From positions 64,001-128,000 of IMG/VR virus record IMGVR_UViG_3300038679_000051: 64,000 nucleotides of DNA; one strand, given 5' to 3'. Made by a program: the position numbers and the translations under genes. This stretch comes from a virus. Taxonomy: Duplodnaviria; Caudoviricetes. Below the pieces are notes generated by a model. That model was given only the letters and a program-made list of their open reading frames with translations, was not told the origin of the DNA and made no database searches. Below are positions 41,600 through 56,639 of the stretch, in pieces (position 1 is the stretch's first letter; each line of letters begins with the position of its first letter).

Positions 41600-41655
41600 C
41601 CCATGACGGGGAGAGAACTCCCCGTTTCGACTAGTTACCATCTAGTCATCGTCAA
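41600..41655 (-). ncRNA. degenerate type I hammerhead ribozyme (H1)
   Basis: Minus strand: TTGACGA-T-GACTAG(ATGGTAA)CTAGTC-GAAA-CGGGGAG..CTCCCCG-TC-ATGGG; core C3 changed, one extra nucleotide, 5' stem I strand lost. Confidence 0.55.
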
Positions 41656-41678
41656 TCAAAACGATTTTAATCTCCTTG

Positions 41679-41770
41679 CCCATTACAAGCACACCAACGG
41701 GCGGCGGACTTCTGTGCCTTATAACCCGTGTGGTGTGCTTGTTTCGATCATTAAGATCTCGTCAGATGGG
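41679..41770 (-). ncRNA. type I hammerhead ribozyme with an extended stem III (H2)
   Basis: CCCAT-CTGACGA-GATC(TTAAT)GATC-GAAA-CAAGCACACCA..TGGTGTGCTTG-TA/ATGGG. Confidence 0.85.
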
Positions 41771-42193
41771 TTTTACCCTTTCAATTATTCCGTTCGGCAA
41801 TTAAATGGCCTTGACGTGTGCCGCTCACGTCGAACATGATCGGTAACTAATTGAAGTGGCACCTCCTTTCGTGATCTCAAGGGTTTTTATCTTAGATCGT
41901 ACTTGTTCTTGCTCACTCCGTTGGTGTCCGTGCCGCCTTGCTCGCTCCGGCGGGTCACAGCTTGCGAAGACGTTTGTGCTGGTCACCTTCAACGTCAATA
42001 ATGACTTCACTTCCATCTTCACATTCTTCCAACTCTTCCTCCGTGCGTTTGCCCTCGTTCACCAACGTCTCGACAGCTTTCTCGTCCGAAATGACCCCTC
42101 TGTTTTGGTCACCGTTACAACCGTCGAACACGATCAGGGCAAATCTGCTCATGTGTTTTCTCCTTAGAATGGGGTTTTAGGTGGGTTTCTTTT

Positions 42194-42253
42194 CCCGTGA
42201 CGGGGAGCGCTTGTTCCTCTCCCCGTTTCGACCATTCGGTCTCGTCAGACGGG
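42194..42253 (-). ncRNA. type I hammerhead ribozyme (H3)
   Basis: CCCGT-CTGACGA-GACC(GAAT)GGTC-GAAA-CGGGGAG..CTCCCCG-TC/ACGGG; GUC site; stem I covaries with the other copies. Confidence 0.9.
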
Positions 42254-42329
42254 TTTGTTCTCCTTCAGTCAAGATTTTAAAATGTTTTTGGAAGTGCGGG
42301 TAAAAACCGTATTCCATCCTTGATGGGGT

Positions 42330-42614
42330 CTAAACTTTTCTCATCACTGTCCTGATTGGACATCGCAATTCTACCCATCCAGCCGCTTTACCTGCTTTGA
42401 AGATTATCTTCTTCGGTTTGTTGTTCCATTCATGATCAATGGACAGATCGAGCATTTCATTCAACTCATCGTAACTCAGTTCAACAGCTGGCTGTTCCAT
42501 CATTCCTTCAATGAGTTCATTTAATTCCTTAATTTTACTAACCACCTTAGTTAGCATTAATTTCCGTAATTCAGTTGCATCCAACAGTCTCTCTTCATTC
42601 ATTCTTTTCTCCAA
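42330..42614 (-). CDS. hypothetical protein
   Basis: Co-oriented ORF. Confidence 0.45.
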   Translation of the reverse strand: MEKRMNEERLLDATELRKLMLTKVVSKIKELNELIEGMMEQPAVELSYDELNEMLDLSIDHEWNNKPKKIIFKAGKAAGWVELRCPIRTVMRKV

Positions 42615-42643
42615 TCTTATCTGGATCCCTCAATTTGGTTTGA

Positions 42644-42952
42644 TTACTTTGCCCCGTCAATTCTTATTCCTTTAAAATTTTCTTTGTTTTTAGATGCAAG
42701 AAATTTTTCAATGGCTTTTCTTTCGTCTTTGCTTAAATCATAATCCGACATATTAAAATCAATTTCATCTTTACCATCCCAATCGATTTCACCATCATAT
42801 GTAAAAACGTATGCTATTGGTACAAAACTGCTTTTATCTTTTGTTCCAATTTTTTGTGCCCCTATGCCAGTGTAAACACAATCTGATTTTTCCCATGTAA
42901 CTATGCCTAATCTCCATCCTGATTCTAAAATTGCATCTATCTCTTTCCGCAT
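42644..42952 (-). CDS. hypothetical protein bracketed by a duplicate of the VWA gene 3' end
   Basis: 25-bp repeat at 42626-42650 and 42962-42986; AT-rich. Confidence 0.55.
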   Translation of the reverse strand: MRKEIDAILESGWRLGIVTWEKSDCVYTGIGAQKIGTKDKSSFVPIAYVFTYDGEIDWDGKDEIDFNMSDYDLSKDERKAIEKFLASKNKENFKGIRIDGAK

Positions 42953-42965
42953 GTTTACTCCTCCC

Positions 42966-44288
42966 TCAATTTGGTTTGATTACTTTTCCCCATGTGGGCA
43001 TTTGATTTGAGGATGATACGACATACCACAACATTGGGTATGATTTCTGTTCTGGCCATTCTAGATAACCGTCGGTGATGACTACGTTGACGTCACCGAT
43101 CAAACCGCGTTCTTCTGCCTCTTTCAGTGCTCTGACGATCGACGTCCCACCACGACCGTGGATTTTAATTTTCTTCCAATCACCTTTCCGGTATTTGCTG
43201 ACGTGTTCTATGCCATGATCAAATTCAATTAATCTGATTTTAGATCGGTAGGCGAGTTTTTCAATGTTGCTGAACGCTTCACTGATTTCATCCGGTCCCA
43301 TTGATCCAGACGTATCACAGAATACGCTTAGATCAACCATCGCCCTGCTGGTCGATCCCGGTATGCCGAATCTAGGGAGTCGGCGATTCAATCTGGAAAA
43401 CGTATTGCGTCTTCCGCCGCATTTCTTCCCCATCCATTCGTTCATCTCACGCATCCAATTAGTGCGTACTTCCTTCAATGCTTTGATGGCTTCTTCAAGA
43501 TGACCCGGTGCGTTTCCAGCGGACTTACATGTCTGTGCGACCATGCCATCAACAATCGCACGAGCATCATCCTCATTTGCCGTGCTGTTATCCCACATAC
43601 CATGATCATCAACCATTTCTGGTTTAGCACCGCACGTCGGACACGTATGTTCATCCTTCTCCTGACCCTGATCATCCTGATTTTGACTACCTCCACCACC
43701 TTGGCCTTGATTCTGGCCTTGATTCTGGCCTTGACCCTTCTGATTCTGGCCTTGACCCTTACCCTTACTCTGGTCATTTTTTGCATTCGGGTCGAAATGA
43801 ATGACCATTGCACCGCATGTCGGACAGATAGTAGAATTTTTCTTCAACCAGTCGTAATACTGTTCTGTGCCGAGATTGCTTTCCGGTGCCGTATACCATA
43901 CGACACTATTTGGAAGATAACATTTTTCGCTATAATCTTTGCCCACGATCTTGATGTTTGGATTATCTTTTGTGCCATTGACAATCGCATCAGCCGCGAT
44001 GTTCCAACATTCCTTGATCCTACTCATTTTCCTGATGCAGTGCAATCTGATGATATGATCAATTTCATGTATGATCACACATGCTAATCCCTCATTACTG
44101 AGACTATCGACGAATTCACGATTGTAGACCGAATCCACCGTGCCATCAGAAATGACCGACACGCCCATCGTTTTACAGTCTCTAGCATTTACCTCACGCC
44201 ACCTCATCATTGAAGCGAAAGTCCCATACCATGGCTTCCGCATAAGAAGTTGGCAGCGCACTTTTTGAATTCTTTCCATTTGGATCAT
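42966..44288 (-). CDS. DUF2201-like metallopeptidase plus VWA-domain protein
   Basis: HEIDH (HExxH), WNIAAD, Q/G-rich linker, MIDAS-like DTSGS, GRGGTS, ITDG. Confidence 0.85.
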   Translation of the reverse strand: MIQMERIQKVRCQLLMRKPWYGTFASMMRWREVNARDCKTMGVSVISDGTVDSVYNREFVDSLSNEGLACVIIHEIDHIIRLHCIRKMSRIKECWNIAADAIVNGTKDNPNIKIVGKDYSEKCYLPNSVVWYTAPESNLGTEQYYDWLKKNSTICPTCGAMVIHFDPNAKNDQSKGKGQGQNQKGQGQNQGQNQGQGGGGSQNQDDQGQEKDEHTCPTCGAKPEMVDDHGMWDNSTANEDDARAIVDGMVAQTCKSAGNAPGHLEEAIKALKEVRTNWMREMNEWMGKKCGGRRNTFSRLNRRLPRFGIPGSTSRAMVDLSVFCDTSGSMGPDEISEAFSNIEKLAYRSKIRLIEFDHGIEHVSKYRKGDWKKIKIHGRGGTSIVRALKEAEERGLIGDVNVVITDGYLEWPEQKSYPMLWYVVSSSNQMPTWGKVIKPN

Positions 44289-44359
44289 TTGTCACCTCCT
44301 TCTCTAGTATTTTTGTCAAACATAAACCGTGGGATGGAACAACAATTGAAAGGAACATC

Positions 44360-45415
44360 ATGTTCAACTGGATCAAAACTCAAAATTCTTTACCTCCTTT
44401 CATCGCAGTCGTCAACTGTGATGACTGCGGTGTTGAAATGACGAGGAAAATACGTCGCGAATCAGATTTACAAATTACTAAACATCATTGTAAACGATGT
44501 ACTGCGAAAAGACAATGGCAGGACCCAAAGTTTCGTGAACTCGTGGTTTCAAGCAGTAGGAAAATTTGGAATGACGAGGAACGTCGTACTAAAATGAGTA
44601 AGATACGAACTGATCCTATTCACGTTGCTAAACTCATTGAGAGGAATAAGACAATCAAACCAGACCCAATAAAGGCGTCGATTGCAGCTAAAGCAACTTG
44701 GCAGAAAATTTTATCGGATCATGAACGACATGTTGCTGCCATAAAAGCAAGAACGAGACAAGCAAAAGAAGCATGGACAAACGACGAATTTCGCAATAAG
44801 GTCGTCATGAATAATAGAAAAAATTGGCAAAACGATGAATATCGTACATCAATCGTCGAATCGTCGAAAGAATTGTGGAAAAATAAGGAGTATAGAGATA
44901 AGATACTCAATAAATTACAAGATCCGGAATATCGCATCAAAATGGCAGAGAAAATGCGCAATAAGTGGCGCACCGACGAACAATTTAGACAAAAAATGCG
45001 CGACCAACCAAAAGTTTCAAGCATTCAAAAGACGCTTTATTCCATATTAGATGATCTTAAAATCAATTATTTTAAAGAACGTGAAGATGGACCGTCAGAC
45101 AAAGAATGTATGATCGGTCCGTATCAATTCGATTGTGTCATTCCTCGTGGCAACAAAACGTTACTCATCGAATGTCAGGGTGATTATTGGCATTCAAAGC
45201 CGGACATCATCAGTAGAGATGCGGCAAAATCTTCTTATATAATGAATAATTTTCCAAATCAATATGAAATTAGATATCTTTGGGAACATGAATTTTCACA
45301 GAAAGATAGAATCGTCAATACTATTAAGCATTGGCTCGACATTAACCAGATCGACGTCGTTGACTTTGAATCACAAAATTGCGTGTCTAACGGCTCATTA
45401 ACTGATCGACGATGA
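44360..45415 (+). CDS. free-standing homing-endonuclease-like protein (PD-(D/E)xK, DUF559/Vsr-like)
   Basis: Helical W..P.FR repeats then YQFDCVIP..LIECQGDYWH..YLWEHE; the only long plus-strand gene in the minus-strand block. Confidence 0.7.
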   Translation: MFNWIKTQNSLPPFIAVVNCDDCGVEMTRKIRRESDLQITKHHCKRCTAKRQWQDPKFRELVVSSSRKIWNDEERRTKMSKIRTDPIHVAKLIERNKTIKPDPIKASIAAKATWQKILSDHERHVAAIKARTRQAKEAWTNDEFRNKVVMNNRKNWQNDEYRTSIVESSKELWKNKEYRDKILNKLQDPEYRIKMAEKMRNKWRTDEQFRQKMRDQPKVSSIQKTLYSILDDLKINYFKEREDGPSDKECMIGPYQFDCVIPRGNKTLLIECQGDYWHSKPDIISRDAAKSSYIMNNFPNQYEIRYLWEHEFSQKDRIVNTIKHWLDINQIDVVDFESQNCVSNGSLTDRR

Positions 45416-45999
45416 GGATTACGCTGTTCTCGGAGACATCCAATCACGATGAGACCGGCATCGTGCCGTAATCGCCGCCCTATCTGGATTAATGGCACAT
45501 CCTCCGCAACCTCTGAAATGACGACGTTGGTGTCCTTAACCAAATAATCGTTGATTCGTCTAGTCCCCGTTGGAAGATTAAAGTGAACGATGCCTTTGTC
45601 ATCGAACTTTTCAATCGTTCCCTTATCCAACATTTTCTTAATCAATTCATCGCGTTGTTTGATGATTTCCTCCGGTGGGGTGGGGATTTTACTTACCGCC
45701 TTGCGTTTGGATGCAATGATCTTTGGTATTCCGGCCATCAACGCATCTATGTCCGCATAATAATTGTTGTTGATGCGAAATTGTTTGCCTTGAATATAAA
45801 CGTTCCAATCAAACGTCTTGCCGTCAATTTCAATTTGCATTTGCGCAAGCAACAGGGAACCATACCTGGCAAATTGTGAACCTCTAGCTTCCGGAGAGAT
45901 GGAGATCACGTATCTCACGCCGTCAATCTTGGGCCATTTCTCCCCAAGTCTCTGTCTGACCAACGCATTGATCTCGTCTATCAATTCTTTGCCGTTCAT
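45259..45999 (-). CDS. hypothetical protein; 3' end overlaps the antisense nuclease gene
   Basis: RBS GAGGAG; last ~50 codons run antisense to the nuclease. Confidence 0.45.
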   Translation of the reverse strand: MNGKELIDEINALVRQRLGEKWPKIDGVRYVISISPEARGSQFARYGSLLLAQMQIEIDGKTFDWNVYIQGKQFRINNNYYADIDALMAGIPKIIASKRKAVSKIPTPPEEIIKQRDELIKKMLDKGTIEKFDDKGIVHFNLPTGTRRINDYLVKDTNVVISEVAEDVPLIQIGRRLRHDAGLIVIGCLREQRNPHRRSVNEPLDTQFCDSKSTTSIWLMSSQCLIVLTILSFCENSCSQRYLISY

Positions 46000-46046
46000 T
46001 CTTGCTCCTCTCTTTCTTCGTCATGAGCGTCGTGACCAATTTCGTT

Positions 46047-46736
46047 TCAACATTCTTTCTCCTTTAACCATTCCCCAAACTTCTTGTCGGTCGCGTCGGC
46101 TCCCGTTTGCATTTCACCTACGAAGCGTTTAAACGTCTCGCTTCTTTCATCGTCGCCCAGTTTAATCAACACCGCATCGGCAGCCACGATGAAATGCATG
46201 AAATTGTTCTTATTGAGATGCACTCTTCGGTATGAGATCCAGTCGATCAACTTTCCAATTTCACCGAATTGCGACTGCAGTCGCAGACTGAGTTCTTTGG
46301 CCATCAGCTTCAAATTGTCCAGCGGGAAGTCGCCGGATTTCATCTTGTTCTTTTTCATTCGTTCTCTTCGCGTTTTCTGTTTCGGATCATAGATCAGAAG
46401 TCCGTCTTTGAACTTTATGTCGTCCGGCAATTTCGTGTAAGGATAGTCAATTACTATTGCACCGTATTTCTTTGCCAATTCACATGCTCTGTTTACGTCT
46501 TGACCGACAAAGACCGGTTTTTCGCTTACTCTTATGTTGTTCCAGTTGGTTTTAATCCAGGTCAGATCGGCGTCTTCCAACGATTCTTTCATGCAGGTAG
46601 CGCTTATTGCTGCGATGATCTCTTCTCTTCCACCGTAAATCACTTCACCGGTGGCGTTGATCAGTGGTTCTGGATTGACGCTCATCTCCCACGTGCCGTC
46701 CTCGTTTTTAACTGCTCCCAGCACTTCCATTTCCAT
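46047..46736 (-). CDS. hypothetical protein
   Basis: AGGAGG RBS just downstream of H4. Confidence 0.55.
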   Translation of the reverse strand: MEMEVLGAVKNEDGTWEMSVNPEPLINATGEVIYGGREEIIAAISATCMKESLEDADLTWIKTNWNNIRVSEKPVFVGQDVNRACELAKKYGAIVIDYPYTKLPDDIKFKDGLLIYDPKQKTRRERMKKNKMKSGDFPLDNLKLMAKELSLRLQSQFGEIGKLIDWISYRRVHLNKNNFMHFIVAADAVLIKLGDDERSETFKRFVGEMQTGADATDKKFGEWLKEKEC

Positions 46737-46759
46737 GTTATCCTCCTTTCGATTAGGCT

Positions 46760-46816
46760 CCCATTAGGGGAGAAAATCCTCCCCTTTCATTCCTGCCACG
46801 GAAATCATCAGATGGG
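46760..46816 (-). ncRNA. type I hammerhead ribozyme with a weakened stem II (H4)
   Basis: CCCAT-CTGATGA-TTTCC(GTGGCA)GGAAT-GAAA-GGGGAG..CTCCCC-TA/ATGGG; first stem II pair is U-U. Confidence 0.7.
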
Positions 46817-47107
46817 CAAAGATGAGTGATAAAACTGAAGAACTAAATGTCCTTGTACTTCTTCACTGACCAGACCGTTTTCCAGCGGCGGATTGACGTC
46901 GTTCGAGAAATTTGCAAGGTGTCCATCCGGTACGGAAACGATCGAACAATGTGGATAACCGCTGCCAAAGTCTAAAGCAATTTTTCTTGCTTCTTCTTGA
47001 TTGAGATGTCCTGGAAGGACGATCGGCTTCACATCATCGTCGAGTCGTCCTTCCATGGTTGGAACTACGATGGTAACATTCATTTTGTCAGCGATCCCCT
47101 CGGTCAT
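46808..47107 (-). CDS. hypothetical protein ending in the H4 core
   Basis: Ends CCC ATC TGA; the stop codon is part of CUGAUGA. Confidence 0.45.
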   Translation of the reverse strand: MTEGIADKMNVTIVVPTMEGRLDDDVKPIVLPGHLNQEEARKIALDFGSGYPHCSIVSVPDGHLANFSNDVNPPLENGLVSEEVQGHLVLQFYHSSLPI

Positions 47108-47113
47108 GACTGT

Positions 47114-47770
47114 TTATTTCTCCAGCACGTCCACTTTGATGTCGGCGATCGCTAAAGCGACGTTAGCGAATCCTGACGCGCCGAGCGTCTTGCGGGCGAT
47201 TTCAGCACGAACCGCTCTTTCCATCGTGCCGATCTTGGAGAGTTTCGTGCGGATTTCGATGATCTTCCGTTGGGCGTCATCGATCGCCTTTTCCAGCATT
47301 TCGTTGCGTTTGATCGCTTTCTTTTCCTCGTCGTTCAACTTCCGTTCCAGTTGCGCATCGTACAGGTTGTTGCAGTATGAGTGTTCTTTGTCAACCGAAA
47401 CGACCACGCTCAACATGAGCGTTTCTGCCTTTTCACACGGTCCCACGATTGACGCCTGCATGCTGCATTTCACTTTCACGTTCAGATCCTTGTACGCTTC
47501 CAGCAGCTTTTTCACTTTCGGCGTCCAGTAATTGGTCGCTGACTGAGAAGTCATCTTTTCGAAGCCGTCCTTGTTCTCTTTCAGTTCTTTTTTCGTCGCC
47601 GCCAGTTCGGCCACGATCTTTTTCTCCTCCACCATCAATTTGTTTTCAAATTCAGAGACCTTAATTGCCACCAGATCTCCCGTCGTCACCTGGGCGCTCA
47701 GCGTGGTGACGTTCTTCACATCGAGTTCTTTCTTCATCAGCATCTTCCTCCTTGAAAAGGTGGTTCCCAC
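47114..47770 (-). CDS. coiled-coil hypothetical protein
   Basis: 218 aa, heptad-rich. Confidence 0.55.
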   Translation of the reverse strand: MGTTFSRRKMLMKKELDVKNVTTLSAQVTTGDLVAIKVSEFENKLMVEEKKIVAELAATKKELKENKDGFEKMTSQSATNYWTPKVKKLLEAYKDLNVKVKCSMQASIVGPCEKAETLMLSVVVSVDKEHSYCNNLYDAQLERKLNDEEKKAIKRNEMLEKAIDDAQRKIIEIRTKLSKIGTMERAVRAEIARKTLGASGFANVALAIADIKVDVLEK

Positions 47771-47787
47771 GTCCCCTTCTTGACTTT

Positions 47788-47849
47788 CCCATTAGGGGAG
47801 GATTTCCTCTCCCCTTTCGGCTGGTCGTCATCCAACCTCATCAGATGGG
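47788..47849 (-). ncRNA. type I hammerhead ribozyme (H5)
   Basis: CCCAT-CTGATGA-GGTTGG(ATGACGA)CCAGCC-GAAA-GGGGAG..CTCCCC-TA/ATGGG-AAAGTCA; loop TGAC complements tail GTCA. Confidence 0.9.
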
Positions 47850-48128
47850 CCGTTGAAGTTCAGAGCCAGGATACGTTTCAAAAAATTCAGGATCTTCAGG
47901 ATCAAGACACGGAAATTCTTTCTTTATCCTTGCTGGAATCCCCATCAAATCATCCAGCGTCGCCCTGCGTTCAGTGTGATCATCCGTCAAATCACCCACG
48001 TTGTAAGCCGTCCCGTTCCCATTGACGCAATGCTCTTCTGCCACGTAGACCATTTTACCATTTTCCAAAACAAGAATTTGGTAAAGTCCGTCAGCATCCA
48101 CGTTAATTGACGTCCTAATCTTTGCCAT
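47841..48128 (-). CDS. hypothetical protein ending in the H5 core
   Basis: Ends CGG CCC ATC TGA. Confidence 0.5.
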   Translation of the reverse strand: MAKIRTSINVDADGLYQILVLENGKMVYVAEEHCVNGNGTAYNVGDLTDDHTERRATLDDLMGIPARIKKEFPCLDPEDPEFFETYPGSELQRPI

Positions 48129-48164
48129 CTGATTTCCTCCTCTTGAGTAAATCTGAACGTGGTC

Positions 48165-49334
48165 TTAATCAGGAGAACCTCTTGGTGCCATTTCCGTTTC
48201 GTCTTTTGACATCAGTTGTTTTGTCAACTCGAAGATTTTGGTTCTGCTCGGTATTTCTTTCAGCCAAATGTTGTTCGTCTTTGACATGATGTCGGCGACG
48301 GCTGCATTAGCCACGATCACAATTCCCATGGTTTGATATTGCGGCTTAAGGATTTGTGAGGCTAAGACTATGGCCATGTCTTTTTCCTTCGAGTCGCAGA
48401 GATGTTCCACGAAATCAAAGACATTGCTGACTTGCGCTTTGGTTACTTTCTTGTCCAAATTTCTGATATATGAAACCACACCCCACACCAGACCGGCCAT
48501 CAGATCACGGCTTATTTCTCGTCCCAGATCATAGATCGGTTTCACGCCATAATTCAGGATGTCCTTCGGTTCGATCTCGAAATTGACCTTTTCATATTGG
48601 ATGGCCAATTCACGACCGATCAATCCCGCTCTGACGTCACGCACGACGTCCAATGGGAATTCTGGGGCATGTTTCTCAATGCGTCCCACTGCCTCCCACA
48701 ATCGCGGTGATGGTTCGATCTTGAAATCCAATGAACCTTTTTCTCTCGTGCAGAGATTGGCCGGATCTGAACCGATGAACTGAATGATCCGCGTAACTTC
48801 CGTATTTGTTCTGTTGGTCACGTAGCTCATCCATTCCGTCATGTAATCCTCTGACATGGTCAATTCTACGTGGCAGAATCGTCCAATGAATGCCTTACAG
48901 AAATCGTTGACGTGGTATCCGTTGTTGTAATTGCCAGCACTGACCACTGACCAACCAGTGAAATTATCATTGTCGTCGTATGAGGTTGGTAACTCGTACG
49001 TGCCAATTCTCCTCTCAACGATCAATTGGAACGCCGCCTGAATGACCGGGTCATCTGCTCGATTTAATTCATCCAGAAAGAACAACCCCTGTCCCTCGCG
49101 GGGCAACTCCGCTGGTGGGCGATAGATCGTATAGCCGTTTTCTTTGTCCGGAAATCCTCGGAGATCCGTGGCCTCGATCTGTGCAGCCCGATAATCCACA
49201 AAACCAATTTGCATTTCTTGTGTAACTTGTCTGACGATGCTTGACTTACCCATCCCATGATGACCCCAAATCATGATGGGCACTTGTACTTTGTGACACA
49301 GTCCGATCGCACCCTTCAATTCAGCTACATTCAT
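48165..49334 (-). CDS. MoxR-like AAA+ ATPase
   Basis: Walker A GHHGMGKS, DLRGFP, Walker B FLDELNRA, AGN, RF.H, SPRLW. Confidence 0.85.
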   Translation of the reverse strand: MNVAELKGAIGLCHKVQVPIMIWGHHGMGKSSIVRQVTQEMQIGFVDYRAAQIEATDLRGFPDKENGYTIYRPPAELPREGQGLFFLDELNRADDPVIQAAFQLIVERRIGTYELPTSYDDNDNFTGWSVVSAGNYNNGYHVNDFCKAFIGRFCHVELTMSEDYMTEWMSYVTNRTNTEVTRIIQFIGSDPANLCTREKGSLDFKIEPSPRLWEAVGRIEKHAPEFPLDVVRDVRAGLIGRELAIQYEKVNFEIEPKDILNYGVKPIYDLGREISRDLMAGLVWGVVSYIRNLDKKVTKAQVSNVFDFVEHLCDSKEKDMAIVLASQILKPQYQTMGIVIVANAAVADIMSKTNNIWLKEIPSRTKIFELTKQLMSKDETEMAPRGSPD

Positions 49335-49423
49335 TTCTGTCTCCTTTCATCGCCCCCAACCATTAAATCCGTTCTTCTATCGCGTAAACATTGCGAAATG
49401 TCTGTCATCTCAGAGAACCATTG

Positions 49424-49660
49424 TCATACAGAACGATTAGAAGTTTGGTTCATGAACAGCCCTTCACGTTCGATGCGTGATAATTGCCTTAGATCAGCGG
49501 CAGATAAATCATGGCGCGTCCCCGACGGGGAGATGAACGTCCAGTCGGATTCACATCGCCATCCAGATTCCCAACAACGTGTCACTGCATCTAACCACAT
49601 TTTGTACTTCTCAGAACTCGTTTTCGTTTCATTCATTTGTAACCTCCAACTCAGTACCAC
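49424..49660 (-). CDS. hypothetical protein
   Basis: WTFISPSG..HDLSAADL motif; probable start at internal MNET. Confidence 0.45.
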   Translation of the reverse strand: MVLSWRLQMNETKTSSEKYKMWLDAVTRCWESGWRCESDWTFISPSGTRHDLSAADLRQLSRIEREGLFMNQTSNRSV

Positions 49661-49820
49661 GAATCAGAATTGATCGGCCATCGTCAAACGTCACTTCCCA
49701 CATACAAGGCGGGACTTCCCCGACAATTTTAGTGATTTTGCCGACCATGCCATCATATTTTGGATGCGTCTCACCCTTCACTCTAATCGTAACGCGATCA
49801 CCGACTTTGTTTTTGCTCAT
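49629..49820 (-). CDS. small SH3/KOW-like protein
   Basis: KVGDRVTI...GKIT..V.FDDG. Confidence 0.45.
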   Translation of the reverse strand: MSKNKVGDRVTIRVKGETHPKYDGMVGKITKIVGEVPPCMWEVTFDDGRSILIRGTELEVTNE

Positions 49821-49829
49821 GCACCCCTC

Positions 49830-50282
49830 CTAATATACGGAAAATCCACCACAGTTCTGTAGAAATGTAATGAATTCCTTTAGGTGATCCAAATTAATTC
49901 TGTATGGACTGACCAGATCATCCCTACTGCCCTTGTACGTTTTCATATTGACAAACGCATTGGTTTTCTCGTCAATTACCAACGAATTTGTAGGAAGACG
50001 TAATTCATTGTCACCAAGAACAAAACCAAATTCGGTAGCCAGTGCTGGTTTGTTGATAATTTCGTTTAATTCCTCGGCTACGCGCAGACATTGTTCGTCG
50101 GTCAATCCCGCACCGTCGTTATACCTCATTGCAACGTACACTTCCTCAGAAATCAACTCATTATTGTTTCGTTTGTTGATGATGCCCAACAATTCATGTA
50201 GTGGATGCCATGACCAAATATTAGCCCTGAAATACTCGCCCTGTTCATTTCTCGGTTTAGTCCCGGTTACGTCCATCCCCAT
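49830..50282 (-). CDS. conserved phage protein
   Basis: MGMDV...GEYFRANIWSWHPL...F..FLQNCGGFSVY. Confidence 0.6.
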   Translation of the reverse strand: MGMDVTGTKPRNEQGEYFRANIWSWHPLHELLGIINKRNNNELISEEVYVAMRYNDGAGLTDEQCLRVAEELNEIINKPALATEFGFVLGDNELRLPTNSLVIDEKTNAFVNMKTYKGSRDDLVSPYRINLDHLKEFITFLQNCGGFSVY

Positions 50283-51037
50283 TCATTTACCCTCCTTTTC
50301 GTCTCTCCATGTTTTATCTCCTCTCTAAGGGCTGGGTCCTTGACATATTGAAGTGCCCAACCATCCTGTTGCGCTGCTACCATACATATTTCCAGTGTCT
50401 GTTCTTTAACAAATTGAAGTGCGTAACAATTTTGTCTTACTGCTGCCATGCACATTTCCGGCGTCTGTTCTTTGTTGTTCGCAGAATATTTGACATATCT
50501 AAGTGCCCAACCATGTTGTTTTACTGCCGCCATACATATTTCTGGCGTTTGTTCTTTGACATATCGAAGTGCATCACCATCTTGTTGCACTGCTGCCATA
50601 CATATTTCTGGCGTCTGTTCTTTGACATATTCAAGTGCCGAACCATTTTGTTGTACTGCTGCCAGATATAATTCCGGCGTCTGTTCCTTGACATAATCGA
50701 GTGCAAAACCGTTTCGTTTTACTGCTACCATGCACAATTCCGGCGTCTGTTCCTTAACATAATGAAGTGCCAGACCATCTCGTTTTACCGCCGCTAGACA
50801 TATGTCTGGCGTCTGCTCTTCAACAAATTCAAGCGCTCGACGATTTTGTTGCACTGCCGCCATGCATATTTCAGGAAATTGCTCATTTAGGTGTTTGAGT
50901 ACATTCCCTAAACCTATTTCATCATTCATCAATTTCTTGACAATCGTTGCATCCTTCATTCGTTCATAATCAATCTTCCTCATTGCCTGGATCACGTCAT
51001 TTAATTGTTCTTTGGTTACGTTCGTCATCCAGTGCAC
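50267..51037 (-). CDS. DUF4116-like repeat protein with MHW leader (GTG start)
   Basis: About 8 repeats; flanked by a perfect 37-bp direct repeat at 50311-50347 and 51038-51074. Confidence 0.75.
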   Translation of the reverse strand: MHWMTNVTKEQLNDVIQAMRKIDYERMKDATIVKKLMNDEIGLGNVLKHLNEQFPEICMAAVQQNRRALEFVEEQTPDICLAAVKRDGLALHYVKEQTPELCMVAVKRNGFALDYVKEQTPELYLAAVQQNGSALEYVKEQTPEICMAAVQQDGDALRYVKEQTPEICMAAVKQHGWALRYVKYSANNKEQTPEMCMAAVRQNCYALQFVKEQTLEICMVAAQQDGWALQYVKDPALREEIKHGETKRRVNEWGWT

Positions 51038-51137
51038 GTTTTATCTCCTCTCTAAGGGCTGGGTCCTTGACATACTTAAGTGCCTGACCATCTTGTCTTA
51101 CTGCCGCTGCCAGCCGTCGTTGCAGTCGTTGCTCCTT

Positions 51138-51458
51138 TCATCTCCATTCCCACAGACATGAGTTTATTTTGATGCGTTTATTGCTTTTCCGCAACCTGTC
51201 GCCCAGGTCTTTCAGAGATGACTTATTGAACCAGAAACCAACTCGTTCCCATTTATCCTTGGGATACCAATCACAAGCGACAACATCATTTTTTACTACT
51301 TCCAGAAACAACCGCCCATCATCCAACAGGAGAACGACCAGATTCTCCCTGACGGCAAACGCCTTGAAATCATAAGCTTTGCCCATGATTTCTTCTCGTT
51401 CAAATTCATTTGCCGTTCTGGGTTTCATATACAGTTGTGCAAGTGCATTCATTCCCAT
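51138..51458 (-). CDS. hypothetical protein
   Basis: RBS AGGAGG. Confidence 0.45.
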   Translation of the reverse strand: MGMNALAQLYMKPRTANEFEREEIMGKAYDFKAFAVRENLVVLLLDDGRLFLEVVKNDVVACDWYPKDKWERVGFWFNKSSLKDLGDRLRKSNKRIKINSCLWEWR

Positions 51459-51476
51459 TTTTAATCCTCCTTGATG

Positions 51477-51665
51477 TCAGAACTCGTCCACATCGCCATA
51501 TTTGGTTAGAACGGCGATGACTGCCTCTTTGATTTGCCCAGCGATTTTCTCAACGTCTGCAGTCCCATCACGGATCTTAATTAATTCAAGATCAATAAAG
51601 ATCTCGACGTCTTCCTTCTTCTGTGAAGTCAGAATAATGTTAACGTCCAGTTGGCTGACTGTCAT
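51477..51665 (-). CDS. hypothetical protein
   Basis: ATGA coupling. Confidence 0.45.
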   Translation of the reverse strand: MTVSQLDVNIILTSQKKEDVEIFIDLELIKIRDGTADVEKIAGQIKEAVIAVLTKYGDVDEF

Positions 51666-51904
51666 CGCTCGTTTCTCCTTAATGGTAGTTTTCTGAGTTC
51701 GTTCTCGATTGCTTTCCCAATATAAGGGCTGAACATAGATAACAATGCCGGTGAAATCTTTTTCTTTACCTTCGGTTCCATCCGTTCAATATTTGTGGAG
51801 GGAACCTGCCGAGCACAACATTTCTTCTTCTTTTTGCCGCTGCCACACGAACATGGCTTATTCATGTTTGCAGTGTCCTTGACATATGCCGTGGTACTTG
51901 CCAT
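51662..51904 (-). CDS. SEC-C metal-binding motif protein
   Basis: NKPCSCGSGKKKKKCC. Confidence 0.7.
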   Translation of the reverse strand: MASTTAYVKDTANMNKPCSCGSGKKKKKCCARQVPSTNIERMEPKVKKKISPALLSMFSPYIGKAIENELRKLPLRRNER

Positions 51905-51921
51905 ATCTCATTGGTTCTCTC

Positions 51922-52248
51922 CTACCATTCAGTCCACACGTCACACACCAGTTTAGTGAGGTTCGCTTCTTCGATTTCGTACTTGCCCCGCATTTCCGGT
52001 AAGGCGTAAACGTATTTCCCGTCTTCCTTGATGACGAACGTACAAAAGCCCGAATCAAAGAAGACGTCGGTACCGTCTGGTACTTCAAACGAGCCGTGCT
52101 CGTCGATTTTATCATCGATATTGAAACCAGGACTTTCCTTGATGGCTTTCTTGGAGATTAAAACCATCTTCATTCGGTCGTGGCAAACGGCGTAGTTGAG
52201 CGTCGTCTTTCCACGTTTGGTCTTGATCTTATCCTTTATCTGTGTCAT
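51922..52248 (-). CDS. hypothetical protein
   Basis: ATGA coupling. Confidence 0.45.
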   Translation of the reverse strand: MTQIKDKIKTKRGKTTLNYAVCHDRMKMVLISKKAIKESPGFNIDDKIDEHGSFEVPDGTDVFFDSGFCTFVIKEDGKYVYALPEMRGKYEIEEANLTKLVCDVWTEW

Positions 52249-52622
52249 TTGGTCATATCGTTTCTAGTGTTTTCATCCATTCCATACAGCATATCACGGA
52301 CGGCCTTAATTGCTTTCTCAAGGTCTTCTGATGAGATCTCATCAGGCTCGCTCATGAGATGGTCCCACATGTATTCGGCCAATGCAGGGATGAACGAATT
52401 GTCTAAATCATTCACGGTCGTTGCGGTTCCGCTCATCATCATGACTACGGAAAAATCTACTGCCCTCATCTGCCAACCAATGACGTACTTCATGCTGAGA
52501 TAACAAAGATTGTTCAGTTCTTCAGTGGTTGGCACGTGCGTAGTAAAATCAACCAGTACCGGTGCGTTCTTGTTCTTGTCCTCAATCATCTTAATCCAAT
52601 CATGTAGTTCTTTTCTTGTCAT
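52245..52622 (-). CDS. hypothetical protein
   Basis: RBS AAGGAG. Confidence 0.5.
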   Translation of the reverse strand: MTRKELHDWIKMIEDKNKNAPVLVDFTTHVPTTEELNNLCYLSMKYVIGWQMRAVDFSVVMMMSGTATTVNDLDNSFIPALAEYMWDHLMSEPDEISSEDLEKAIKAVRDMLYGMDENTRNDMTK

Positions 52623-52682
52623 GGCGTTCTCCTTAAATGGTTATTAGTGTTTTCTGAGTTCGTTTTATTCATCCGTTCCTCG

Positions 52683-52928
52683 TTATTCATTAAGGCGCTG
52701 GAAGTTCTTAAAATCATCACTCCAAATTTGACGACTCGCATCGTTTTCAAATTTCACGATCATTTTGGGTCGACCGTCTTCAAATGGTTCAACGTCAGTC
52801 ACTACACCAGTCATTCCTTTACTGACATGAAGATGCTGTTTTTCGCCATCAGACCAGAAAACATCATTCAAAACGACAACCCGATCACCCTTTATCATTT
52901 TCTTTTCCCTTTCTTTTGTCATTTTCAT
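52683..52928 (-). CDS. small SH3/KOW-like protein
   Basis: KGDRVVVL...GMTGVV; starts just after H6. Confidence 0.45.
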   Translation of the reverse strand: MKMTKEREKKMIKGDRVVVLNDVFWSDGEKQHLHVSKGMTGVVTDVEPFEDGRPKMIVKFENDASRQIWSDDFKNFQRLNE

Positions 52929-52953
52929 TTATTATTTCCCAACATCTTAGTTT

Positions 52954-53012
52954 CCCATTAGGGGATATGAGATCCCCTTTCGACTAGTTACTAGCTAGTC
53001 TCATCAGATGGG
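52954..53012 (-). ncRNA. type I hammerhead ribozyme (H6)
   Basis: CCCAT-CTGATGA-GACTAG(CTAGTAA)CTAGTC-GAAA-GGGGAT..ATCCCC-TA/ATGGG-AAACTA; loop TAGT complements tail ACTA. Confidence 0.9.
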
Positions 53013-53119
53013 TCAATTATGGTTCCGAGGCATATCCCATACAGTAATCACATTCATAAATCATATGCATATGACATCTACATCCCGGCGGTCTACTTCT
53101 GACATCCGCCTCTTCCAAA

Positions 53120-53413
53120 TCACACCTGAAAAACATCCGGTGCACGCCAGGTGATCCATTCCCTATCCCAGAATCTCAAATCACTCTTTTCATCTGCTGT
53201 TCGGACCATAAACATACCATTCCCCATATCCATAACAAACCATCTATAAACACCATCTGGTTTGTCAGACATATAACAGACCGGTCGTTCCCCGTTCTCC
53301 AACAGAAAAACATCACACTCCCAACATTTCACAATCACATGCGCACCAACTAGTTCAGCCAACGCATCGAGATCATCATGGTTTTTCACGTTATAATCCC
53401 CCTGAACAATCAC
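53120..53413 (-). CDS. hypothetical protein
   Basis: Co-oriented; strongly G/T-biased coding strand. Confidence 0.45.
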   Translation of the reverse strand: MIVQGDYNVKNHDDLDALAELVGAHVIVKCWECDVFLLENGERPVCYMSDKPDGVYRWFVMDMGNGMFMVRTADEKSDLRFWDREWITWRAPDVFQV

Positions 53414-53604
53414 AAAACACGTACCAACTCAGTTTCATCATCAAACGAAATAACTTCATTTATTTCACAACTAGTAGTATAATACACAATGTCACGCTTC
53501 GAATAATTAAAGTTAGAACAACCCATAATCTCTTGAACAGACTTAAACGTCAAATCATCACTCAAAAAAACACCATCAGACTTCCGCCTAATCCTAAATC
53601 TCAT
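53410..53604 (-). CDS. hypothetical protein
   Basis: GTGA overlap with the next gene; G/T-biased. Confidence 0.4.
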   Translation of the reverse strand: MRFRIRRKSDGVFLSDDLTFKSVQEIMGCSNFNYSKRDIVYYTTSCEINEVISFDDETELVRVL

Positions 53605-53868
53605 CCAAATGCCTCATCACTCATCGCATTCCCTCCCAATCATCGAAACAATCCCGTTGTTGGTGTTGGTTGAAGAACCCTTTAAGTGCGTGTAAGAGGC
53701 TTGATTATCGCAAATATATTATATATTTTAATTATTTCACTAATAGGATATTAACAGCTTGCTAATGCTTACTTAATAGCTCCCGTATGCGACCCTAATG
53801 CACATAGAGCAAGCGTTGACGCTCATTGTGCAGCTCATTGTGCACTGACTTATTGCACACCGAGCAAG

Positions 53869-54081
53869 CGTTGACGCTCATTGTGCATCAATACGTTCTG
53901 GGTTAGTTTGAACCAGAACAAAGAAAACCGCTATCCACATTTAAGATGCTCCGGTTTTCCCGGCTACATTTTACGTGGAAATCACCCAATCTAACGCTTG
54001 CGGCGTTAGCTCTAAGGGTGACTTGTTGCGGCAAAACGTTGACGCTCATTGTGCATCAATACGTTCTGGGTTAGTTTGAAC
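53869..54081. repeat. 45-bp direct repeat duplicating the 3' end of the receiver gene
   Basis: CGTTGACGCTCATTGTGCATCAATACGTTCTGGGTTAGTTTGAAC at 53869-53913 and 54037-54081; partial third copy near 53807-53832. Confidence 0.85.
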
Positions 54082-54384
54082 TGGATCACACCGAACCAAC
54101 TCGGTAACACTAATTCTGATGTACCCCATTGCCACTAACGCACGAGCGATGTTTTCTCTCCCCACTGGATTCATAGTTACTAATACGACCGCTTCTGGTT
54201 GATAGGCAGGATTTTGTTCCAGCCAATTGGTTATATCATATCCCGTCTTCTCCTCACCTAAATCGTGGTCCAAGTACAGGACATCCCAGGGACCATTCTG
54301 TAATGCCACAATTCCGTCATCATATGTTCTGGCTGTGCGGTGGACGGTCATTACTCTTAAATCATCAATCAGAAGCATTTTCAT
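54046..54384 (-). CDS. stand-alone receiver domain of the cyclic-phosphate-processing type
   Basis: LLIDDLR...LYLDHDLGEEKTGYDITNWL...TMNPVGRENI. Confidence 0.7.
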   Translation of the reverse strand: MKMLLIDDLRVMTVHRTARTYDDGIVALQNGPWDVLYLDHDLGEEKTGYDITNWLEQNPAYQPEAVVLVTMNPVGRENIARALVAMGYIRISVTELVRCDPVQTNPERIDAQ

Positions 54385-54395
54385 ATGGCATCTCC

Positions 54396-54650
54396 TCAGA
54401 CATCTGGTTCCCGTTCTTTATGCCTGGCAAAACGCGACCGCGTTTCTTCTGCTCCCGCGTTATAACCAGCACACCATCGTTGGTTCCAGGCATTCAAATG
54501 AATCTCAATAAATTTCCCGACGACATCCATAGCAACTTCATGTGTGCAACCTGTCGTTTTACGAATATAAATTGCCATCTCTCGGTGCCAATTTGGTGTT
54601 TCGGCATTTTGAAGTTCATCGTGATCCATTTTGGCACCCTCCTCCTTCAT
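54396..54650 (-). CDS. hypothetical protein
   Basis: Co-oriented ORF. Confidence 0.4.
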   Translation of the reverse strand: MKEEGAKMDHDELQNAETPNWHREMAIYIRKTTGCTHEVAMDVVGKFIEIHLNAWNQRWCAGYNAGAEETRSRFARHKEREPDV

Positions 54651-54800
54651 GATTTACCCACAAGAATCCGTCCCAGTCGTTTGTGACCAGCATGTTTGTA
54701 CCATTTCTTCCACCAAATGGCGACTTCTTTTGCCGACCATTCCTTGTTGAATTCCTCGGCAGCTTGTTCTGCGGCTACATCCATTCCGTCTGGGATCATG

Positions 54801-55145
54801 TCATTTCTCCTTGATCGTTTTATCACAATGCCAGTAACAATCATCACCTTGTTGGAGATTCCAAACACGGAATGATACTGCTTTAAATGACGGTTTGCCG
54901 TCGACTCCTGGTCGAGCAGCATTTTCGAAAACGCCCACAGGGACTTTCAAGATGTAATTCAGTGCAGCAGCAGGATTGACAACAACTACACCTTCGTACT
55001 CCTCATCTTTATCACCAGCAGCAGTTTCACTGAATGCATCCTCATCACCAACGTGGACCAACTCGATGCGAAGCTGGTCTGCCAACTGAATCTGATCCTC
55101 GGTCGGTACATGTCTTGAAATGAATGCGAATCTCTTTTTTCTCAT
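54801..55145 (-). CDS. hypothetical phage protein
   Basis: FAFISRHVPT.DQ..LA...ELVHVGD.DAF...VVVVNPAAAL...GVFEN..R motif. Confidence 0.55.
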   Translation of the reverse strand: MRKKRFAFISRHVPTEDQIQLADQLRIELVHVGDEDAFSETAAGDKDEEYEGVVVVNPAAALNYILKVPVGVFENAARPGVDGKPSFKAVSFRVWNLQQGDDCYWHCDKTIKEK

Positions 55146-55253
55146 CTCTCCCTCCCTTTCGTTTGGTGGATGTTATTTGTGGGGTTTCTACATATACAAG
55201 CCTATTGTCATATCTGACCGATTTCGGGGGATATAACAACATATACGTTTCTA

Positions 55254-55439
55254 TTAGATGACATCATAACCGTTGAGGAAGATAACACCATCACCGCGAC
55301 GAGCACGACGGTGTGCAGCTTTCTTCAGCTGCTTTTTGATTTTCTGAGAACAACGGGTCTTCGCACGACAAGACCATGACCACTTCCAGTCGTTGGAGAA
55401 ATATTCCTTCTCTACGATCTTGCTGGTGCTTCGACGCAT
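55254..55439 (-). CDS. small basic protein inside the inverted repeat
   Basis: AGGAGG RBS directly after H7; KKAAHRRARR. Confidence 0.5.
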   Translation of the reverse strand: MRRSTSKIVEKEYFSNDWKWSWSCRAKTRCSQKIKKQLKKAAHRRARRGDGVIFLNGYDVI

Positions 55440-55466
55440 GCCACACCTCCTTTCAGTTTGGTGGCT

Positions 55467-55523
55467 CCCATTAGGGGAGGTTTCCCTCCCCTTTCGACCG
55501 TGCCACCGGTCTCCTCAGATGGG
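55467..55523 (-). ncRNA. type I hammerhead ribozyme (H7)
   Basis: CCCAT-CTGAGGA-GACCG(GTGGCA)CGGTC-GAAA-GGGGAGG..CCTCCCC-TA/ATGGG-AGCCAC; loop GTGGC complements tail GCCAC. Confidence 0.9.
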
Positions 55524-55682
55524 CTGCAGCACCCTAGCTTCTTCCTGCACGCGGGTTCTCTTCGGCTTACTGGGGTACTTTGCATATGAACCAATCCAAT
55601 GAAGAGTTGGTTCATGTGCTTTTCCCCCATCTTCAGCAGCTAGTTTCGGTCGAGGGCTTTCGACCGTTGTGCGGTGCTGCAT
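55515..55682 (-). CDS. possible 55-aa ORF ending in the H7 core
   Basis: MQHRTTVESP...RVLQPI-TGA, read by hand; not in the ORF track. Confidence 0.3.
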   Translation of the reverse strand: MQHRTTVESPRPKLAAEDGGKAHEPTLHWIGSYAKYPSKPKRTRVQEEARVLQPI

Positions 55683-55956
55683 TCTTATTTTTTACGAATA
55701 TCGCATAAGAAACCTCCTTCTTTAATTGTACCGGGATCTACGGTCAGGAGCACAAGCATATTTTGCCTCCCAGTATCTAATGGCTCCCTCCGGACTGGGT
55801 CTTAATTCACAAGAATGTCGCACCTCCTTTCTTGGTTTGTATGTTCATCGGCAATAAAAGCGTATATGTTGCTATATCCCCCGAAATCGGTCAGATATGA
55901 CAATAGGCTTGTATATGTTGCCACCGGGGATGATTTATTGTCCCCGGTGGCACAGG

Positions 55957-56163
55957 TCATTTGGCTTGCAGCGCAGCCTCGATAGCTGCCTGCAGGTCGA
56001 TTACCTGCATGTGGCGTGCACGATTCAACATCTTTATGTAATTCGCGGCTTCATCGACCGTCCCACGATAGACGGTCTGACCACTTCTTTTCCTGATTTC
56101 CACCATCTTCTTGTCTGGGGACGGGAAGCATTTCAGTCCCAACTGGCACAGGTTTTCATTCAT
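55957..56163 (-). CDS. hypothetical protein
   Basis: AGGAGG RBS. Confidence 0.5.
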   Translation of the reverse strand: MNENLCQLGLKCFPSPDKKMVEIRKRSGQTVYRGTVDEAANYIKMLNRARHMQVIDLQAAIEAALQAK

Positions 56164-56291
56164 TGGACACCTCCTTTTTCTGACTTTACTCTACTCGATT
56201 AGGATCACAATGATCCCTGGGTAGACAACCCTCTTTGTGGAAGGTTGTCTACCGAGGGATCATACCCTCGGCGGGCTTTCACCCGGTGTGA

Positions 56292-56525
56292 CTAGTCCTG
56301 CGAGGCTTCCCATTCAACTTCACCCAACGGGAAGGGTCCGAACCCCTTGGTACAGACATGGGTCTTTTCTCCCGCACCCATGACATAGCTGATGACCCGA
56401 TCCGCCGTTTCTCCGGCAATACGGATCTTGTCACCTTTCTTGAGATTCGCACCAGCCGCTCCCACTTTCAAGCTGCCCGTGTCGTTGTTCGTCACTTTGT
56501 TCGCCATTCTACACCTCCCTCTCAA
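56292..56525 (-). CDS. small protein, tandem paralogue A (probable start MANKVT)
   Basis: NNDTGSLKVG..G.NLK.GDKIRI...ISY.MGAGEKTHVCTKGFGPFPLGEVE. Confidence 0.6.
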   Translation of the reverse strand: MRGRCRMANKVTNNDTGSLKVGAAGANLKKGDKIRIAGETADRVISYVMGAGEKTHVCTKGFGPFPLGEVEWEASQD

Positions 56526-56577
56526 ATTAGAAGATTATCGTCGGGTGAAACACTCACCTTACGAAACCTTCTGGTTT

Positions 56578-56639
56578 CCCATTAGGGAGAGAAAATCCTC
56601 CCCCTTTCGGCTGGGGACCACCCAGCCTCATCAGATGGG
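56578..56639 (-). ncRNA. type I hammerhead ribozyme (H8)
   Basis: CCCAT-CTGATGA-GGCTGGG(TGGTC)CCCAGCC-GAAA-GGGGGAGG..TCTCTCCC-TA/ATGGG-AAACCA; loop TGGT complements tail ACCA. Confidence 0.9.

Follow-up and report, generated by a model that had tools for sequence, protein, structure and literature searches.

A co-oriented array of putative pseudoknot-stabilised type I hammerhead ribozymes between the genes of a groundwater jumbo phage

The window, a stretch of 64,000 nucleotides, belongs to a complete phage genome of 320,399 bp. Eight hammerhead matches (H1-H8) were located on its minus strand at positions 41595-56639, and a descriptor scan together with a covariance model (CM) revealed these to be the only ones in the genome. 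All eight CM matches were co-oriented and spread over 15 kb of the 320-kb groundwater phage genome. The initial annotation had given the range of these minus-strand elements as starting at 41661; this position, however, is the 5′ edge of H1, and H1 with its tail reaches 41595. Each unit was intergenic, with a stop codon on one side and a strong SD sequence on the other. The array is held in a leftward gene block, into which an opposite-strand ORF (44360-45415) breaks, and nearly all of the genes that it flanks are ORFans. Megablast comparison of 6.5 kb against phage sequences in GenBank returned no match, and no relative of the neighbouring ATPase could be found in viral contigs. A promoter scan yielded 26 promoters against 33.6 expected from shuffles, and promoters and terminators could not be assigned. 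The promoter count did not rise above that of the shuffles, and one transcript across the array is assumed. Parts of the region were present in two groundwater metatranscriptome runs as short, low-depth, fragmentary contigs without readable RNA ends. Among the RNA contigs listed, which were short and of low depth and stood beside 99 further pieces, none interpretably spanned or ended at a predicted cleavage site.

H2-H8 contained the full type I core (C3 U4 G5 A6 N7 G8 A9 ... G12 A13 A14), the A15.1-U16.1 pair and a non-G H17 at the predicted cleavage site. The MFE structure of each was a three-way junction in which loops close stems II and III and stem I stays open. The descriptor scan and the CM both placed H8, H7, H6, H5, H3 and H2, while H4 was placed by the CM and H1 by direct reading and the CM. 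H8 (56578..56639, minus strand, as are all features given here; CM 75.5 bits) was composed of CCCAU, CUGAUGA, a 7-bp stem II, GAAA, stem III, UA and AUGGG, with predicted cleavage between 56583 and 56582; its upstream stop codon abuts stem I. H7 (55467..55523; 61.5 bits) had the core CUGAGGA and predicted cleavage between 55472 and 55471. Predicted cleavage fell between 52959 and 52958 in H6 (52954..53012; 74 bits), between 47793 and 47792 in H5 (47788..47849; 70.4 bits) and between 46765 and 46764 in H4 (46760..46816; 58.2 bits). H3 (42194..42253; 34.9 bits; predicted cleavage between 42199 and 42198) had a CCCGU/ACGGG stem I, a GUC site and a 4-nt loop II, GAAU. H2 (41679..41770; 30.3 bits; predicted cleavage between 41684 and 41683) carried a long 56-nt stem III, and its three-way junction had a z of -5.3. 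The UGA of the CUGANGA core ends an upstream ORF in H4 (99 aa; 46810-46808), in H5 (95 aa; 47843-47841) and in H7, where the ORF is doubtful, being 55 aa long and without an SD sequence.

H1 (41600..41660; 26.6 bits) was degenerate. It reads UUUGA, UUGACGA, an extra U, a 6-bp stem II, the loop AUGGUAA, GAAA, stem III, GUC and AUGGG, and its core has U3 in place of C3. In its MFE structure, stems II and III form and stem I does not, the 5′ strand of stem I being down to wobble pairs. The G10.1-C11.1 pair that closes stem II, which is highly conserved but not strictly essential in type I hammerheads, was present in H2, H3 and H5-H8, followed the extra U in H1 and was a U-U in H4. Stem II was 93.6% paired, with two-sided changes at five of its six pairs; stem III base pairs covary, and stem I was compensated, CCCAU/AUGGG against CCCGU/ACGGG.

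At the gathering score, none of the eight copies was matched by a hammerhead model of Rfam 15, and at E-values up to 10 only H3 matched, to the RAGATH-1 hammerhead (RF03152). Its 26.7 bits (E 1.1) against a gathering score of 56.3 do not make it a member of that class. Homologues on other contigs were likewise missed by the Rfam hammerhead models. As hammerhead cores are very short, these misses probably reflect low model sensitivity and are not read as contrary evidence.

The initial annotation had described loop II as complementary to the sequence just 3′ of stem I, with a different sequence in each copy, and direct reading of the four main pairings found them exact. UGGU of H8 (56617..56620) pairs with ACCA 2 nt past stem I (56572..56575), in agreement with the family rule given below; GUGGC of H7 (55502..55506), from the 6-nt loop GUGGCA, pairs with GCCAC 1 nt past stem I (55461..55465). 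UAGU of H6 (52990..52993), from CUAGUAA, pairs with ACUA 2 nt past stem I (52948..52951), and UGAC of H5 (47827..47830), from AUGACGA, with GUCA 3 nt past stem I (47781..47784), a linker 1 nt above the family norm. Similarly, GGC of H4 (46795..46797), from GUGGCA, was read directly to pair with GCC 1 nt past stem I (46756..46758), and GGU of H1 (41639-41637) with the tail strand ACC (41595..41597). The contact thus spans 4 bp in H8, H6 and H5, 5 bp in H7 and 3 bp in H4 and H1, all in the family register. It was not universal within the array, as H3 had no partner near stem I and H2 lay in an unusual register. The UUAAU/AUUAA pairing earlier proposed for H2 has its sequence match, 5 bp between the 5-nt loop II (41754-41750) and a possible tail strand displaced to 7 nt past stem I (41667..41671), but with a chance of about 0.02 for the AUUAA word in a 14-nt window it can be called suggestive. 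In H3, GAAUGG and CCAUUC, 25 nt downstream, were considered as a pseudoknot and rejected; the pairing needs stem II opened and is a single unreplicated case.

Single matches of just 3-5 nt, one of them (H2) with a chance of about 2%, could in principle be coincidences between short A/G-rich loops and tails. Such an explanation is effectively refuted by the set as a whole, as the complementarity of each loop to its own tail was matched by none of 14,833 derangements of the eight copies, and shuffled tails gave p values of 0.0009-0.003, that is, below 0.004. The family-wide pairing, its covariation and the concordant independent contrasts presented below also stand against it. Among H4-H8, stem I and the core were 98% identical, whereas stem II, loop II and the tail were 25-46% identical but still complementary. 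These comparisons support the loop II/3′-tail pairing as a selected tertiary pseudoknot, in line with the earlier argument that compensatory change marks the copies as functional rather than as passive repeats.

Viral and metagenome contigs supplied a total of 144 distinct relatives, which share one geometric rule. Stem I has 5 bp and is followed by an AA linker, and the 7-nt loop II pairs through its nt 3-5 with tail nt 3-5; stem II has 6 bp, often with one extra nt beside A9, and the 3-bp core of the contact is extendable to 5 bp. Alignment of the copies and homologues, as had been suggested, revealed covariation of the pseudoknot. The pseudoknot core cells were paired in 94.6% of cases, compared to 20-54% when the partner was slid, and none of 500 shuffles matched the observed pairing. 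Counts for the pair l5:t3 were UA 44, AU 41, CG 25 and GC 16. All three Watson-Crick pairs were present in 118 of the 131 members with a 7-nt loop, formed by 11 different complementary triplets. On a tree built without the pseudoknot columns, t3 tracked l5 in 6.8 of 7 (U/A) and 5.8 of 6 (C/G) independent contrasts and never went the opposite way. A conserved fourth or fifth pair, l6:t2, was rejected, as it did not covary in the independent contrasts. A strict pattern that included a GGGG/CCCC stem III had zero matches in viral contigs; a metagenome pattern scan gave 58 loci, mostly false on structure, and a genome-collection pattern scan gave 21 loci, of which none passed the structure filter. 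The distinct loop and tail words of the array were also considered as a guard against cross-pairing between neighbours, a proposal rejected on finding other contigs whose three copies all share GGA/UCC.

The repeat units of the array stop directly after the tail, in favour of the tail being part of the ribozyme unit, and the repeat common to H4 and H7 (D12) ends exactly at the H4 tail strand. The copies could alternatively be imagined as remnants of some repeat or mobile sequence that no longer cleave, with complementarity inherited from an ancestral functional element. The clear degeneration of H1, the non-consensus 10.1/11.1 pair of H4 and the 73-nt inverted repeat bounding the segment that holds H7 would fit such an origin. 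We regard it as highly improbable, since the strictly conserved core positions are all intact in H2-H8, the stems vary solely by compensated changes, and four differing loop/tail pairings on a near-identical core mean that, once duplicated, the copies must have changed on both sides more than once. The suggestion that H1 and H4 are decaying holds for H1, with its U3 and lost stem I 5′ strand. H4, however, need not be decaying, since its 3-bp contact is the family norm, and its U10.1-U11.1 is on record as a naturally occurring variant with the highest activity of the mispairs (PMC3088659 section 8). This U-U could be observed again in four other phage contigs (L199, L105, L119 and L152).

A 2011 study (Perreault et al., PMC3088659) had already reported pseudoknots in type I hammerheads as well as clusters of ribozymes beside phage genes, and the pseudoknot of the array is the stabilising contact that was characterised and put to the test for this class at that time. 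Breaking such pseudoknots lowered k_obs 20- to >100-fold at 0.5 mM Mg2+, and compensation rescued it (PMC3088659); type I examples from a mouse gut metagenome and Yarrowia lipolytica whose loop II forms a pseudoknot have been tested as well (PMC10187678). Both reports agree with the role that the initial annotation had taken as established for loop II-stem I contacts at physiological Mg2+. The topology and consensus core of the array are the same as in these examples and in human C10orf118 (Rfam Hammerhead_HH10), with a like Watson-Crick contact of loop II beyond stem I that is reported to be needed for fast cleavage at ~0.5 mM Mg2+. The sequences are unrelated, however, and the phage array and its 144 relatives differ in having a fixed geometry and in falling below the Rfam thresholds.

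Type II hammerheads (RF02276; Perreault et al. 2011) also have a short covarying pseudoknot that sets stems I and II parallel, and they lie between phage genes, often in arrays. They are circularly permuted, with stem II open and loop I pairing with the tail after stem II, whereas in the array the open helix is stem I and the pairing joins loop II to the tail beyond it. The prophage clusters of Agrobacterium tumefaciens, Clostridium scindens and Azorhizobium caulinodans (PMC3088659 Figure 3) are likewise co-oriented and flank genes or short blocks, and processing of long phage transcripts was proposed as their role (PMC3088659). Compared to these, the present array has eight copies in 15 kb of a 320-kb free groundwater phage and lies among genes that are nearly all ORFans. 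The loop-loop and loop-bulge contacts of Schistosoma and sTRSV-type hammerheads are non-Watson-Crick and without base-pair covariation, unlike those of the array.

Taken with the published behaviour of this class, the motifs, folds and covariation make it very likely that the array consists of self-cleaving type I hammerheads stabilised by a pseudoknot, of which seven seem competent and H1 is degenerate, within the transcript of the leftward block. In each unit, a 1-3 nt A-rich linker would come after the open 5-bp stem I, and the next 3-5 nt would pair with the middle of loop II. This pairing may clamp stem I alongside stem II and pre-organise the CUGANGA/GAAA core, allowing cleavage after H17 at cellular Mg2+. 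The polycistronic RNA would be cut just past the stop codon of one gene, 20-70 nt ahead of the next SD sequence. The upstream product would end in a folded ribozyme with a 2′,3′-cyclic phosphate, and the downstream mRNA would carry a 5′-OH; a role in mRNA processing can be proposed. The 5′-terminal AUG of the 3′ product was rejected as a leaderless start, since ACG begins most family members.

The downstream gene has the tail in its 5′ leader, at a distance of 8-15 nt from the SD sequence in H7, H4 and H1. In 35% of the family the tail runs on into a second stem I 5′ strand, from which the 3′ product may build an alternative hairpin. Selection could accordingly act on a non-catalytic pairing that retains the 3′ product on the ribozyme once cleavage is over, or on a switch that controls whether ribosomes or RNases can reach the leader of the following gene. 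We consider this very unlikely, as the alternative hairpin is found in none of the window copies and the position rule is what a stem I/stem II tertiary clamp needs, kept at every spacing from the SD sequence, which among the window copies is ~10-70 nt. Published mutants in the same kind of contact, moreover, alter the cleavage rate itself (PMC3088659).

Cleaving ribozymes might also be under translational gating and differ in strength, which would tune both the stoichiometry and the stability of successive mRNA segments within a single long transcript. Stop codons within or abutting the core in H4, H5, H7 and H8 mean that a terminating ribosome could cover stem I and the core, with folding only on its release, and a cleavage rate differing per junction could follow from pseudoknot lengths of 3 bp (H4, H1) to 5 bp (H7). 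The sole gene in the genome for a receiver-domain protein of the cyclic-phosphate-processing type lies inside the array, a position that hints at a further use of the cleaved ends. This extension is rather unlikely on present evidence.

With eight type I copies in one complete jumbo-phage genome, the array is a clean and statistically strong natural case of the pseudoknot clamp, and it leaves the known working principle of hammerheads unchanged. Its geometric rule, common to at least 144 phage relatives unflagged by current Rfam hammerhead models, was not found spelled out in published hammerhead accounts as far as these were accessible, and can be useful for phage genome annotation and for a better covariance model. 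RtcB is absent from the phage genome. The array can also be a good test bed for the role of hammerheads in phages (PMC6765202).

The source record was a single-contig virus genome of 320,399 bp with direct terminal repeats, rated 100% complete. No close relatives of this phage genome were found among GenBank phages or in IMG/VR, and the same DNA was present in groundwater and coal metagenomes. An Rfam search of the window returned no family at the gathering score. When the complete genome was scanned with a descriptor of the hammerhead core and three helices, six type I hammerheads matched perfectly; all of them lay on the minus strand within window 41679–56639. A covariance model built on five copies from the window and eight from outside produced exactly eight matches genome-wide, namely the six ribozymes of the descriptor scan together with H4 and H1 of the copies designated H1–H8.

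Direct reading of the sequence revealed a stem I of 5 bp (CCCAU/AUGGG), which occurred as the variant CCCGU/ACGGG in H3. The window copies consisted of the stem I 5′ strand, CUGANGA, stem II with its closed loop, GAAA, and stem III, which was GGGGAG/CUCCCC in every copy except H2, followed by U16.1 and H17 (together UA or UC), then the 3′ strand of stem I and the tail. The three-way junction was the MFE fold for each of H2–H8, and in the MFE fold of H1 only stems II and III formed.

The pairings between loop II and the tail just 3′ of stem I, as listed in the initial annotation, were exact on reading of the sequence. Each loop was fitted better by its own tail than by the other window tails; when the eight tails were reassigned among the loops, none of the 14,833 derangements equalled the actual arrangement in total complementarity or in the number of matches of ≥4 bp, and shuffled tails gave p values of 0.0009–0.003 for the observed loop-tail match. 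Identity among H4–H8 was high in the constant parts (stem I and core, 98%; stem III, 78%) and lower in the parts that had diverged yet stayed complementary (stem II, 45%; loop II, 25%; tail nucleotides 1–8, 46%). The repeat common to H4 and H7 (D12) stopped immediately 3′ of the paired tail bases, and the tail is therefore part of the conserved unit.

The pattern scans used to collect homologues fixed just the core, stem I, and the cleavage site and left loop II and the tail free. They yielded viral-contig loci in sets of 11, 26, and 109 and a small number of true matches among the metagenome loci; model alignment of the scan loci gave 148 matches, 144 of them distinct. The family had a fixed geometry of 5-bp stem I, 6-bp stem II, and 7-nt loop, with an AA linker in 122 of 143 members and, frequently, an extra nucleotide beside A9 at the 6-bp stem II. 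Loop nucleotides 3–5 paired with tail nucleotides 3–5, and all three pairs were Watson-Crick in 118 of the 131 members having a 7-nt loop. Eleven complementary loop/tail triplets were observed (GGU/ACC, GGA/UCC, GGG/CCC, GGC/GCC, GAA/UUC, AGC/GCU, AGU/ACU, GAU/AUC, UGC/GCA, GAC/GUC, and UGU/ACA). The covariation of the pseudoknot claimed in the initial annotation was borne out by this alignment. The three pseudoknot pairs were formed in 94.6% of alignment cells and in 20–54% when the partner was slid by 1–3 columns, and 0 of 500 shuffles attained the observed pairing or covariation score of the pseudoknot columns. All four Watson-Crick types occurred between the fifth loop and third tail nucleotides (l5:t3; UA 44, AU 41, CG 25, GC 16). 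Phylogenetically independent contrasts, on a tree built without the loop and tail columns, revealed that the change at t3 matched the l5 contrast in 6.8 of 7 (U/A) and 5.8 of 6 (C/G) cases and never ran in the opposite direction. The flanking pairs l2:t6 and l6:t2 were formed in approximately half of the family members, and independent contrasts gave no covariation for l6:t2. In 50 of 143 members, the tail beyond the pseudoknot strand repeated the four leading nucleotides of the stem I 5′ strand, against 7.7 expected and a maximum of 16 over 1000 shuffles. The stem I 3′ strand could then pair with this repeat and close the 5′ end of the 3′ cleavage product into a hairpin. Examples of this repeat were seen at tail nucleotides 6–14 of the outside loci L104, L118, and L155, and none among the window copies.

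The canonical family register was used by H8, H6, and H1. The linker of H5 carried one additional A, and in H7 and H4 the loop was 6 nt and the linker 1 nt long, as in the AGCCC subgroup of the family. H4 and H1 had both been regarded as decaying members, a reading upheld for H1; H4 need not be decaying. Since 118 of the 131 members with a 7-nt loop carry the full three-pair Watson-Crick core, a 3-bp contact is the family norm and no sign of decay. Four further contigs, their pseudoknots intact, carried the U10.1-U11.1 of H4 as well. With an extra U placed after A9, H1 could be read as a unit of the family type, in which U replaces C3 and G8 is retained. Its stem I 5′ strand had changed from CCCAU to UUUGA, leaving four G-U wobbles and one mismatch, and H1 is probably inactive or very slow. 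The UUAAU/AUUAA pairing of H2 does not follow the family register, being separated from stem I by 7 nt, and taken alone has a chance expectation of approximately 2%. H3 had a 4-nt loop with no pairing partner near stem I, and one outside member (L154) resembled it. The tails of H4 (46746–46759) and H1 (41586–41599) shared CCUAAUC followed by AAAGGAG. These 3′ flanks seem to be of common origin, distinct from that of the ribozyme bodies; the H4 body is like H7 and the H1 body like H6/H8.

The loop II/tail pairing is an H-type pseudoknot that links the ends of stems I and II to each other. Perreault et al. (PMC3088659) reported that shortened or mutated pseudoknots cut k_obs 20- to >100-fold at 0.5 mM Mg2+ and that compensatory mutation restored the rate, an effect covering hammerheads of all three topologies, and estimated that approximately 40% of hammerheads use such a pseudoknot. 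Type I hammerheads with a loop II pseudoknot have already been tested (PMC10187678). By analogy, we infer that the pseudoknot of the window copies plays the same rate-enhancing role. Elements of this kind, tertiary contacts of this type, and their clustering in phage DNA were all described in 2011 (PMC3088659). Modestly new are the array size of eight copies in one free 320-kb phage, the explicit positional pairing rule common to at least 144 relatives, and the lack of any match at threshold to Rfam hammerhead models on window copies or relatives.

Every unit was flanked by a stop codon on one side and the Shine-Dalgarno (SD) sequence of the next gene on the other. On the minus strand, the core UGA served as the stop of the upstream ORF in H4 (46808–46810) and H5 (47841–47843) and of a doubtful 55-aa ORF without SD in H7 (55515–55517), and a TAA stop adjoined stem I of H8 (56640–56642). 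TAA or TGA was also located directly 5′ of stem I in many outside family members. Genes around the array were nearly all ORFans. The most likely function is the cutting of a long leftward transcript into segments differing in ends and stabilities, a processing role proposed in 2011 (PMC3088659) and still unproven in a 2019 review (PMC6765202). A scan for the leftward transcript gave promoter-like and terminator-like matches at chance level only, and the metatranscriptome contigs covering the array were too fragmentary to resolve RNA ends. Three to four copies of a 28–47-nt motif (core AACTAAAAATCATAACT) occurred at 57006–57363, in the intergenic region between divergent genes just upstream of the leftward block. 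These copies may act as phage promoters or operators for the ribozyme-bearing transcript. The deepest RNA-library contigs of the 16-kb stretch (24x and 34x vs 1–14x elsewhere) lay at 55502–55847, directly 5′ of H7. In this stretch, the ORFs behind the strong SD sequences were just 2 and 4 codons long; it may represent a non-coding RNA, the 3′ end of which would be generated by H7.

A 112-aa ORF between H7 and H6 (54046–54384, minus strand) matched cREC_REC (PF20274, cyclic-phosphate processing receiver domain; E 3.6e-19) and was the only such gene in the phage genome, from which RtcB was absent. Its place inside the array is suggestive because hammerheads make 2′,3′-cyclic phosphate ends. A 73-nt inverted repeat of 92% identity (55183–55255 and 55853–55925) enclosed approximately 600 nt with H7 and the following 61-aa gene. 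DNA contigs of two runs broke inside its arms, and one RNA-run contig joined 55236 to 55873 on opposite strands; the segment 55183–55925 may be invertible, or this may be an assembly effect of the inverted repeat. H8 lay exactly between duplicated genes, the tandem paralogue ORFs of 71 aa and 68 aa (56314–56489 and 56656–56831; spacing 342 nt), which shared an 81-nt block at 95% and an 80-nt block at 70% identity. Periodic 66-nt repeats encoding DUF4116 (PF13475) were found in three genes (41014–41445, 50337–50932, and 38054–38848), with a PF13475 match of E 1.2e-33 for 41023–41568, and one of these genes was that served by H1/H2. Within the H4–H3 interval (42966–45415) were an HNH-endonuclease-like gene of 440 aa (phrog_1314, E 2e-63) and, on the opposite strand, an ORF of 351 aa that matched REase_MTES_1575 weakly (E 0.0015); a local change in the sign of the AT skew suggests an insertion into the leftward block. 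On L064, a 39-kb IMG/VR contig, three pistol ribozymes (RF02679, 66–70 bits; L064:7186–8188) were located within approximately 1.4 kb of a family hammerhead on the same strand (L064:8532–8612).
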